This document shows, one piece after another, positions 2,606-3,770 of a stretch of 15,712 bases of DNA (the first letter of the stretch is position 1; each line of letters opens with the position of its first letter). The DNA is from a virus (lineage: Duplodnaviria > Heunggongvirae > Uroviricota > Caudoviricetes). The stretch lies in IMG/VR virus record IMGVR_UViG_2700989173_000009; one strand, given 5' to 3'. The position numbers were made by a program, and so were the translations under genes. The notes beneath the pieces were generated by a model that searched no databases, was not told the DNA's origin, and saw only the letters and a list, made by a program, of their open reading frames with translations.

Positions 2606-2806
2606 ATGGTTGCCGTAAATCATATACCACACCTTGTACACACACAAACGGCCTTTGTGTGGCGTTTTCTGGCACTGAGTGCCGGAGAATCCCAAATCAT
2701 CCACGTAACCGCTTGGACGGAACGCGAAGCGCGTAGCCGTTGCCCGTCCGGTTGTGTTGCTGTATTCGCCGCCCGTATTCGTCAGGGGGAAACCTATGCA
2801 CAATAA
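2606..2806 (+). CDS. Hypothetical small protein, 66 aa (first gene of the rightward operon)
   Basis: ATG at 2606 preceded by a near-consensus Shine-Dalgarno AGGAG (2596-2600) at 5-nt spacing; its stop overlaps the next ORF start by 11 nt, consistent with translational coupling. No recognisable motif. Confidence 0.55.
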   Translation: MVAVNHIPHLVHTQTAFVWRFLALSAGESQIIHVTAWTEREARSRCPSGCVAVFAARIRQGETYAQ

Positions 2807-3017
2807 AACCACACCGAACGCAGCAGCCGCCGCACTCACTACGCTGATGCACGCGCTTATTGATATTGAATGCACGGCAGAGCTTGCGCAGGGAGAAGAA
2901 CAGAAAGACCGGACACAGTTCGCCCTGGAATGTATCCGATACATCGCAACGCGGTCACTGAATGACGCTAAAAATATTCTTGTTGCCGATTGTGAAAATG
3001 GGGGGGGTTATGCGTGA
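2796..3017 (+). CDS. Hypothetical small protein, 73 aa
   Basis: ATG at 2796 with Shine-Dalgarno AGGGGGA 5 nt upstream; overlaps both the previous and the next ORF. Alanine-rich N-terminus. No recognisable motif. Confidence 0.55.
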   Translation: MHNKTTPNAAAAALTTLMHALIDIECTAELAQGEEQKDRTQFALECIRYIATRSLNDAKNILVADCENGGGYA

Positions 3018-3162
3018 TGATCGTTTTAATTCCCTGAAACAGGAATTTTCCGGCGTTCCTGATGATGCGGCTGATGCGCTTTCGTCAATGCCAGAACTTA
3101 TTAGAGCGGCTTTTTTCTTACTTTCCACGAGAGAATATAAATCAACGGGCTTGATGTACTGA
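3010..3162 (+). CDS. Hypothetical small acidic protein, 50 aa
   Basis: ATG at 3010 directly after a G7 tract that can act as Shine-Dalgarno; overlaps the previous stop (3015-3017). Below the 60-aa cutoff of the ORF track (which lists the longer 2962 frame). Low confidence. Confidence 0.4.
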   Translation: MRDDRFNSLKQEFSGVPDDAADALSSMPELIRAAFFLLSTREYKSTGLMY

Positions 3163-3231
3163 ATATCGCCGCCGATTATGCTGATTTCGTGACAGAGGTT
3201 ATTTTAAGAAAAACGACGGACGGGGATTAAT

Positions 3232-3465
3232 ATGCGTGATATTTACCACGAAACAATAGACCGCGCATTTCTTGCACTTTCTCACAGTGAAAACATGCTG
3301 GAAATATTGCGCATATGGCTTGAAACACTTGGCGACAATGAACGCGACAAACAAAAATCAAGAATTGCCACGGCATTAATAACGCTTCTTGAGCCTGTAA
3401 TAATGGAACTGCAAGAAATAGATCTATTGCACGACAGATATAAAGAACAACACACCGGAGAATAA
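3232..3465 (+). CDS. Hypothetical protein, 77 aa
   Basis: ATG at 3232 with an upstream GACGGACGGGGA purine-rich RBS; same strand and operon as the neighbours. No recognisable motif. Confidence 0.55.
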   Translation: MRDIYHETIDRAFLALSHSENMLEILRIWLETLGDNERDKQKSRIATALITLLEPVIMELQEIDLLHDRYKEQHTGE

Positions 3466-3470
3466 AAATA

Positions 3471-3770
3471 ATGAAACTTAAATATTCTGGCTTAACTGCC
3501 AGTGGCAACACTCACCCTAAATTTACGCGCGGTGATATTTACCGCGACCAGTACGGCGGCATGGTAACGATTAAAGGCGTGGCAGAACGGCGCATCACCT
3601 ACCGCCGTGAAGGTTACGAATATGATTGCGTGATGCCTGTTTATCAATTCCGGCGTGATTTCACGCTGGTACAGGCAGCGCCCCGCAGTAAACCAACCAG
3701 CAGGGAGAAAGCACGCGCCAATATTCAGGAAATAAAAAAGATGCTTAACGTATTCAGGGGTAAAAAATGA
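3471..3770 (+). CDS. Hypothetical basic protein, 99 aa, translationally coupled to the replication gene
   Basis: ATG at 3471 after GGAG; its stop overlaps the primase start in an ATGA arrangement (3767-3770). Lys/Arg-rich C-terminus. Function unknown. Confidence 0.6.
   Translation: MKLKYSGLTASGNTHPKFTRGDIYRDQYGGMVTIKGVAERRITYRREGYEYDCVMPVYQFRRDFTLVQAAPRSKPTSREKARANIQEIKKMLNVFRGKK

Follow-up and report, generated by a model that had tools for sequence, protein, structure and literature searches.

The small genes ahead of the replicase in a Shigella flexneri phage satellite: a four-gene operon with Icd-like and RgdR-type proteins

What are the small genes that stand directly in front of the replication gene of a phage satellite? 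The question is raised by positions 2606-3770 of a 15,712-nucleotide (nt) stretch of viral DNA (Caudoviricetes; IMG/VR record IMGVR_UViG_2700989173_000009; the whole stretch is called the window here), where five short open reading frames (ORFs) lead into a primase-helicase gene. An earlier note, made from the letters alone, had described them as five coupled genes, recognized none of them, and proposed that a 77-residue protein and a basic 99-residue protein might act in helper sensing or as anti-repressors. We find that the block holds four genes, not five, and constitutes the early operon close to the replicase in a phage-inducible chromosomal island (PICI) of the capsid-forming type (cfPICI). 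The finding is mostly ordinary, the satellite in question being already known. Modestly new are the observations that RgdR is a fixed component of the satellite replication operon, that an Icd-like gene heads the operon in all 58 scorable loci, and that a poly-G hotspot splits the gene next to it.

To which element does the block belong? The gene order of the window, as read from its ORFs and Pfam matches, is integrase, AlpA, P4/D5-type primase, capsid, protease, portal and terminase, up to phoQ. The window aligns gap-free over 6.6 kb, at 99.985% identity, with the chromosome of S. flexneri SFBU1023. The flanking and packaging regions of the window (positions 1-2332 and 6577-13457) share 95-98% identity with the prophage-like element Sp7 of E. 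coli O157:H7 Sakai, which is located between roxA and phoQ. Sp7 is the same element as OI-51/CP-933C (PMC3378721), and OI-51 is EcCIEDL933, the prototype cfPICI (preprint 10.1101/2022.09.08.507074). Because of these matches and synonyms, we identify the window as the S. flexneri counterpart of the known satellite EcCIEDL933/CP-933C/OI-51/Sp7, integrated beside phoQ; the same island is also present in S. flexneri genomes. The features of a cfPICI of the EcCIEDL933 type are all found: int, alpA, a replicase, its own capsid, protease, portal and terminase genes, a length of about 15 kb and a non-prophage attachment site.

Are the five ORFs genes, and how are they joined? All on the plus strand, they are ORF1 (2606-2806), ORF2 (2796-3017), ORF3 (3010-3162), ORF4 (3232-3465) and ORF5 (3471-3770). 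They lie exactly where the earlier note had placed them, and the good ribosome-binding sites it had seen are borne out by a G-rich, Shine-Dalgarno-like stretch upstream of each. The ATG starts of ORF1-3 are internal to longer, mechanically called ORFs but agree with RefSeq coding sequence (CDS) boundaries in related E. coli genomes. Overlapping stops and starts, which had been claimed throughout, occur between ORF1 and ORF2 (11 nt), between ORF2 and ORF3 (8 nt) and between ORF5 and the primase gene, where the ATGA junction is as described. ORF4 and ORF5 are spaced by 5 nt, and the claim fails between ORF3 and ORF4, which are separated by a 69-nt gap. Every ORF matches a PHROG, Pfam or NCBIfam family (E from 1e-9 to 1e-42), all are under purifying selection (dN/dS 0.15-0.6), their changes being enriched at third positions, and the stretch 2606-3770 is matched in 1598 of 5426 complete E. 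coli genomes. Because of these family matches, this selection and this wide occurrence, the five ORFs are more than chance. The description of a satellite accessory block of small, mostly coupled genes that ends at the replication gene is therefore upheld in substance; the observation was real and is partly confirmed, having been miscounted by one gene and misdescribed at one junction.

The miscount concerns ORF2 and ORF3. ORF2 (73 amino acids (aa), acidic, a short allele; dN/dS 0.15-0.49) matches positions 1-76 of the phrog_2512 profile (E 6e-11), and ORF3 (50 aa here, with its own ATG just after a G run) matches positions 78-126 (E 6e-28); in O157:H7, one 154-aa CDS spans both. Because the two match phrog_2512 consecutively and correspond to a single CDS in O157:H7, we assign them as the N- and C-terminal halves of one acidic gene of about 150 aa, and the best database clusters are 148-161 aa long in 120 of 120 cases. 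By sequence comparison, the frameshift site at the junction is a run of eight G (3000-3007): G7 and G10 keep the ORF2/ORF3 frame, and G8 and G9 break it. Best exact junction matches among 650 complete E. coli genomes fell on G7 (358), G8 (179) and G9 (170); run lengths of 6-11 were seen among 35 fetched junctions, and in-frame G10 variants occur. Rapid phase variation of the run was considered and ruled out, as loci with identical 400-nt flanks agree in run length (four groups) and differences are found only between near-identical flanks. The run is thus no fast switch but a hotspot of mutation whose state is passed on within lineages.

A second lesion lies at 3147-3149, where the window has GGG and its aligned relatives have GGGG (of 39 copies, 36 have G4 and three have G3). 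This 1-nt deletion frameshifts ORF3 and shortens it from 73 aa, the length of its counterpart in Nissle and H19, to 50 aa; it also leaves 3163-3231 as out-of-frame former coding sequence, which is the 69-nt gap before ORF4. Both the G-run split and the GGG deletion are reproduced, gap-free, in the complete SFBU1023 chromosome. In split states both halves may still be produced, with ORF3 retaining its own ATG. In the present copy the gene is probably inactive, because it has been split by poly-G slippage and then truncated further.

What do the outer two genes encode? The statement that none of the proteins could be recognized was wrong for both ORF1 and ORF5. ORF1 (66 aa), the first cistron, is preceded by an AGGAG Shine-Dalgarno sequence at 2596-2600. 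It scores 64.6 bits against NCBIfam NF033153 (cut-off 25, E 6e-18), its orthologues carry the RefSeq name 'host cell division inhibitor Icd-like protein', and it is 95% identical to ECs1577. Its identity to Icd of phage P1 is 41% over P1 residues 8-50 (E 1e-7), and this alignable range essentially coincides with the P1 core, residues 12-51, that suffices for FtsZ binding and division block (PMC11897509). P1 Icd and seven satellite homologues share 13 invariant columns (W14, R15, F16, A29, E32, E34, A35, R36, P40, G42, F46, A48 and R49). The P1 residues predicted to contact FtsZ are R15, Y24, E32, T47, A48, R49, S51, S57 and W61 (PMC11897509); ORF1 retains R15, E32, A48 and R49, has replacements at Y24, T47 and S51, and ends before the C-terminal tail into which S57 and W61 fall. 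Its dN/dS is 0.27-0.46, and E. albertii as well as a 16.5-kb satellite derived from Klebsiella also have Icd-like genes. We place ORF1 in the Icd family; by its homology to P1 Icd, it most likely binds FtsZ and halts cell division. A minus-strand ORF over the same region (2594-2944; phrog_4106, 4e-45) was rejected as an antisense shadow of ORF1, as its codon position 1 corresponds to ORF1 position 3, where substitutions concentrate. The phrog_4106 family itself appears to have been assembled from wrong-strand gene calls.

ORF5 (99 aa) matches the Pfam family DUF4222 (PF13973) with 85.2 bits (cut-off 27, E 2e-24) and is 88% identical, across all 99 residues, to ECs1581, the RgdR protein of O157:H7. 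Its isoelectric point (pI) is 10.25, as basic as had been supposed, and it carries RGD at residues 20-22 as well as K35. By these sequence features ORF5 is RgdR, on which experiments have been available since 2012. The O157:H7 protein, ECs1581, has 99 aa and a pI of about 10 (Flockhart et al. 2012, PMC3378721). It activates LEE1, of the enterocyte effacement locus (LEE), as well as type III secretion, is a repressor of motility and changes the binding of Congo red; its DNA binding is sequence-nonspecific, and its activity depends on residue 20 of the RGD motif (PMC3378721). Its orthologues C1493 and ECED1_1787 lie in islands that are now called EcCICFT073 and EcCIED1a (PMC3378721). Because Shigella is without LEE and non-motile, the published LEE and motility phenotypes cannot be the selected function of ORF5 here. 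A protein identical to ORF5 is recorded in over 11,000 assembly blocks, and each of the four sites shown falls within this same island.

What kind of protein is RgdR? In the AlphaFold model, residues 21-70 reach a confidence score (pLDDT) above 90; five strands and one short helix make up a barrel, behind which comes a long, basic helix at the C-terminus. Structural matches of the barrel include CarD, Spt5 KOW domains and DUF1653. A Foldseek search with the barrel listed KOW domains independently, none of them below E 0.02. The fold class as modeled, a Tudor/KOW-like small barrel, is secure; this fold is common to many unrelated binders. DUF4222 is a small family, with 74 representative clusters among 1.84 billion proteins, nearly all of them stand-alone small proteins. 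A Rosetta-stone test on these clusters gave two long matches, which proved to be repetitive Rib-type surface proteins and were rejected as spurious. RgdR, DUF4222 and Icd are not mentioned in the satellite papers cited here (PMC6092414, PMC10085698, 10.1101/2022.09.08.507074), and 'RgdR' is absent from the top-ranked papers of a literature search that combined it with satellite terms.

How constant is the arrangement? The replicase, a P4-type primase-helicase (3767-5515, plus strand), matches Pfam D5_N, DUF5906 and Pox_D5 and TIGR01613. Its first ~120 residues (3767-4130) belong to no Pfam family and are nearly unchanged in RepA-like (AAA_25) and DUF927 replicases from related islands, with the motif TEVIIFAGSDAW.HAK.WQE; a recombination seam lies within the replicase gene, downstream of this shared N-domain. 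We compared 80 loci from viral-contig collections, most of them on contigs of 6-17 kb. The DUF4222 gene overlaps the next gene by ATGA in 80 of 80 loci, and that next gene is a replicase with the shared N-domain in 78 of 79. The catalytic cores behind the N-domain are of three kinds, namely D5_N (51), RepA-like AAA_25 (25) and DUF927 (3). At the other end of the operon, an Icd-like gene is present in every one of the 58 loci that extend far enough upstream. The genes in between are variable among these 58 loci: ORF4 occurs in 44 and is missing in 14, ORF2 occurs in 43 and ORF3 in 34, and E. albertii and Sakai have different small genes in the middle of the operon. Conservation across related elements thus holds for ORF1 and ORF5 and only in part for ORF2-ORF4.

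ORF4 (77 aa, pI 5.0) matches phrog_2196 (8e-42) and no Pfam or NCBIfam family, and it is predicted to fold into an acidic two-helix hairpin (pLDDT 93.7), for which the structure matches are generic coiled-coil hairpins only. It shares 26% identity (E 6e-7) with ECs1580, which has the same position in Sakai, and on that likeness it is assigned as a distant allele. The profile searches and structure prediction that had been suggested for each protein paid off for ORF1 (Icd) and ORF5 (DUF4222 barrel), and for ORF4 they gave no informative relatives. Sequence and profile searches of the Protein Data Bank with ORF1, ORF5, ORF4 and the fused ORF2/3 returned no significant match. In 50,697 phage records none of the five proteins was found, save for single matches in two satellite-sized records, one of 16.5 kb and one of 8.6 kb. 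The 16.5-kb record is the Klebsiella-derived one; it carries integrase, primase and capsid genes, and has its Icd-like match upstream of the primase.

The region upstream of ORF1 offers candidates for control. AlpA is encoded at 1605-1793 (plus strand; PF05930, E 5e-18), and AlpA is the activator required for induction of Gram-negative PICIs (PMC6092414). In Sakai Sp7 (fetched locus 2122-2731), no alpA CDS is annotated between the integrase gene (ECs1574) and ECs1576, although the window, which is 95% identical over this part, does encode AlpA. A promoter-like sequence, TTGACA-N18-TAATGT (2471-2476 and 2495-2500), can be read from the sequence; its 18-nt spacer kept it off the list of a simple promoter scan. 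It is bordered by a pair of 21-nt repeats that contain TGTGT..ACAC half-palindromes (2460-2480 and 2501-2521) and were located with a repeat finder. We regard this promoter/operator at 2460-2521 as a candidate inferred from sequence only. A divergent gene at 2297-2476 (minus strand) encodes a ribbon-helix-helix protein of YlcI/YnfO or Arc-like type (NF041551, E 5e-4, below the cut-off; phrog_228 Arc-like, E 2e-6); it is annotated YlcI/YnfO in relatives, and its substitution phase favors the minus strand. This gene and the 2460-2521 repeats are a candidate repressor/operator pair for the replication operon. For Gram-negative PICIs no master repressor is known (PMC6092414).

The operon leader also holds a GC-rich stem-loop at 2544-2576, AAGCCCCG-N17-CGGGGCTT, which is kept in five loci with diverged flanks. 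On the minus strand, where a T-run comes after it, the stem-loop has the look of an intrinsic terminator, a hint of antisense transcription across the start of ORF1. Rfam, at the gathering score and at E up to 10, detected no C4/CI-type or other known RNA, including a C4-type antisense RNA upstream of ORF1 in the layout of the P1/P7 immI region. A resemblance of the hairpin loop to the ribosome-binding site of ORF1 (15 nt, 80%) was dismissed as coincidence, as it is not kept in relatives with the same binding site. Likewise, a 248-aa plus-strand ORF at 1851-2597 (ECs1576 in Sakai, called an 'Icd-like pseudogene' by the annotation pipeline PGAP) is probably an artefact, since the substitution phase among 19 relatives speaks against the plus frame. 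That phase fits two minus-strand genes, at 2063-2239 (phrog_21027) and at 2297-2476 (the ribbon-helix-helix gene).

How might the operon work? In Gram-negative PICIs the helper phage activates alpA and thereby switches the island on, and AlpA activates downstream genes in EcCICFT073 (PMC6092414). The account that we consider the best overall, with rather better than even confidence, is an early cfPICI operon in which an Icd-like gene, a split gene, ORF4 and RgdR are coupled to the replicase. The operon from 2606 would be expressed upon AlpA activation, from a promoter near 2471-2500 between the operator-like repeats. ORF1 would arrest division via FtsZ while the island replicates and is packaged and, being the first overlapping cistron, may gate translation of the genes that follow, in the way that P1 icd acts on ant. 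ORF2/ORF3 and ORF4 would be exchangeable accessories, with ORF2/3 probably dead in the Shigella copy. RgdR, translated in step with the replicase, would serve as a DNA-binding, possibly RNA-polymerase-binding, accessory factor for the expression or action of the replication module, and its effects on LEE and on flagella and motility would be spill-over onto host promoters. Of all this, family assignments, gene split, synteny and coupling are shown by the sequences; the functional part, namely FtsZ targeting by ORF1, a replication-linked RgdR and an AlpA-dependent promoter for the operon, is inferred.

It is important to note that several points weigh against this account. The constant adjacency of DUF4222 and replicase could merely reflect the position of recombination seams. 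RGD is found in 63 of 109 close homologues of ORF5, in which G21-D22 is invariant and R20 varies. The sole apparent fusion of DUF4222 with a replication domain, a 179-aa protein that joins it to a primase zinc ribbon (P0411), looks like read-through of adjacent genes and was set aside. FtsZ binding by ORF1 is argued from 41% identity and four of nine predicted contacts, without the C-terminal 22 residues of P1 Icd. Finally, there is no C4-type RNA before ORF1, and therefore its regulation differs from that of P1 icd.

A bolder extension of the same account seems to us unlikely, though worth stating. RgdR would be a global modulator encoded by the satellite, with a barrel that docks onto RNA polymerase, like the C-terminal domains of UvrD/PcrA and CarD, or onto the replicase N-domain, and with a basic helix that grips DNA. 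The Icd-like protein, as a block on FtsZ, would be its partner in a host-takeover module shared by Gram-negative PICIs and cfPICIs, and the poly-G run would be a heritable switch from one fused protein to two separate ones and back. If this is true, the control of LEE and motility by RgdR in enterohaemorrhagic E. coli (EHEC) would be a by-product of satellite biology.

Could the small genes, and chiefly RgdR, instead serve the host? They would then be cargo ('morons') for virulence and motility, with no role in the satellite life cycle, a reading that we consider improbable. It has experimental facts on its side: deletion of OI-51 or of rgdR reduces type III secretion, adherence and sheep colonization, and RgdR represses motility in uropathogenic E. 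coli too (PMC3378721); the Sakai island, moreover, has a second LEE regulator, pchE. However, strains that are LEE-negative also have RgdR homologues, and so does Shigella, which is non-motile and LEE-less. The gene never stands alone but is ATGA-coupled to the replicase in all 80 loci, inside the operon, and not at the island ends, which are the usual location of PICI cargo (PMC10085698). In the decaying Shigella island, rgdR has stayed intact while pchE has been deleted.

The earlier proposal, in which ORF4 and/or ORF5 would be a helper sensor or an anti-repressor that derepresses the island or a helper prophage, is more doubtful still. Its appeal comes from analogy: epsilon of satellite P4 derepresses P2, and Ant, encoded just after icd, is the anti-repressor of P1. 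P4 epsilon has an analogous position, in one operon with the alpha primase and upstream of it, and P1 ant directly follows icd; ORF2/3 and ORF4 are small, acidic and helical, like many protein-binding inhibitors, and a repressor to be countered may exist, as the divergent ribbon-helix-helix gene and the operator-like repeats adjoin the operon. But the analogies to epsilon and Ant are positional only. None of the five ORFs matches the 'Derepression' family of P4 epsilon (PF25738) at E up to 1, although epsilon itself scores 4e-50 on it. BLAST and phmmer of the ORFs against epsilon were negative as well, and there is no Ant-family match. Nor did any ORF match a family among the PADLOC-DB defense models at E up to 1. 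When the window proteins were compared with those of P4 by BLAST and phmmer, only AlpA and the primase were related, and no homologue of epsilon, ORF106 or the CI RNA was found. Island induction runs via helper-activated AlpA (PMC6092414), and RgdR binds DNA, not any known repressor, and acts on host promoters (PMC3378721). ORF4, for its part, is missing in 14 of 58 loci, and in one Shigella copy an IS1 interrupts it. The helper-sensing or anti-repressor role thus finds no support.

How intact is this copy of the island? It is partly decayed. The major capsid gene (6811-8016) has an in-frame stop at 7684-7686, so that 275 and 109 aa stand against one 385-aa gene in Sakai Sp7; therefore the copy may be defective, and capsid formation has possibly been lost. 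At 6383-6577, about 500 nt of Sakai Sp7 are absent, namely most of ssb together with the 5' portion of pchE, the gene for a LEE regulator; an ORF of 53 aa, the remnant of the SSB N-terminus, persists at 6394-6555. In a sister strain, S. flexneri CP026871.1, an IS1 insertion (fetched locus 4985-5951) has truncated the ORF4 orthologue to 72 aa, and the integrase of that copy is also split in two. An N run lies at about 11117-11167 of the window, within an ORF upstream of the large terminase gene; the window therefore comes from an assembly with a gap or masked stretch. Shigella genomes are known for the accumulation of pseudogenes. That much of the block in the window is a decaying remnant without current function, as the two frameshifts in ORF2/3, the capsid stop, the ssb/pchE deletion and the IS1 within ORF4 of one strain would suggest, is nonetheless the least probable reading, given that purifying selection acts on ORF1, ORF4, ORF5 and the primase, all of them intact in the window, that the exact ORF5 protein recurs in so many assembly blocks, that E. 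coli islands which are otherwise intact commonly show the G8/G9 split states, and that ORF3 retains its own ATG and a G-rich ribosome-binding site.

The interpretation of the earlier note is thus partly supported, and its label of unknown function is outdated for two of the genes. For the window itself, the gain is mainly a clean annotation and a flag that the Shigella copy is partly decayed. Beyond the window, two literatures have dealt with the same genes without cross-reference: the EHEC virulence field has studied RgdR as a 'prophage' regulator, and the satellite field has passed over the genes from alpA to the replicase as hypothetical. The results on RgdR and the Icd-like gene offer a way into how Gram-negative satellites take over the cell, and into why a satellite gene controls LEE and motility.

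How does the operon compare with known systems? The left operon of satellite P4 (ORF88/Vis, cI region, epsilon, ORF151, ORF106, alpha) resembles the window in that an AlpA-like gene, small genes and a primase gene follow each other in one direction; the primase cores are 40% and the AlpA proteins 47% identical. An Icd profile run against P4 in six frames returned nothing. The N-terminus of P4 ORF151 (7440-7895, minus strand; GEIYR...YRRKFSIL) resembles the DUF4222 barrel of RgdR (GDIYR...FRRDFTLV). In an hhalign comparison of ORF151 with DUF4222 the P-value is 0.003, with a probability of only 11%, and no Pfam match exists; this unproven likeness could be a distant link between the replication operons of P4 and the PICIs. 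With P1, the operon shares an icd gene as first cistron that overlaps the next gene. According to the P1 record, icd overlaps ant1 by ATGA and is needed for ant expression. P1 Icd has 73 aa, in contrast to the 66 aa of ORF1, which lacks the C-terminal tail; P1 icd is followed by the Ant antirepressor gene, whereas ORF1 is followed by unrelated small genes and the replicase; and P1 Icd belongs to a phage, whereas the family members considered here belong to satellites. The Tudor/KOW barrels that bind RNA polymerase (the C-terminal domain of UvrD/PcrA, the RID of CarD/Mfd, and the KOW domains of NusG/Spt5) share 13-18% identity with RgdR, with no significant sequence or profile match.

The closest comparisons are with the islands of E. 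coli. RgdR of O157:H7 OI-51 lies in the same island and at the same chromosomal site as ORF5, likewise directly upstream of the replicase. ORF5 differs from ECs1581 by 12 substitutions, including D10A and H45R, and the replicase core downstream is of the D5_N type in the window, in contrast to the DUF927 type beside RgdR of O157:H7. Compared with Sp7, the central cassette is mosaic, with ORF2/3 and ORF4 of the window in place of ECs1578-1580; the window further differs in its replicase core, in the ssb/pchE deletion and in its interrupted capsid gene. The capsid, protease, portal and terminase module is common to the window and EcCIEDL933/Sp7, and the int-alpA-...-replicase layout of the window is that of the regulatory and replication module of EcCIEDL933 and EcCICFT073 (Fillol-Salom 2018; Alqurainy et al. 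10.1101/2022.09.08.507074).

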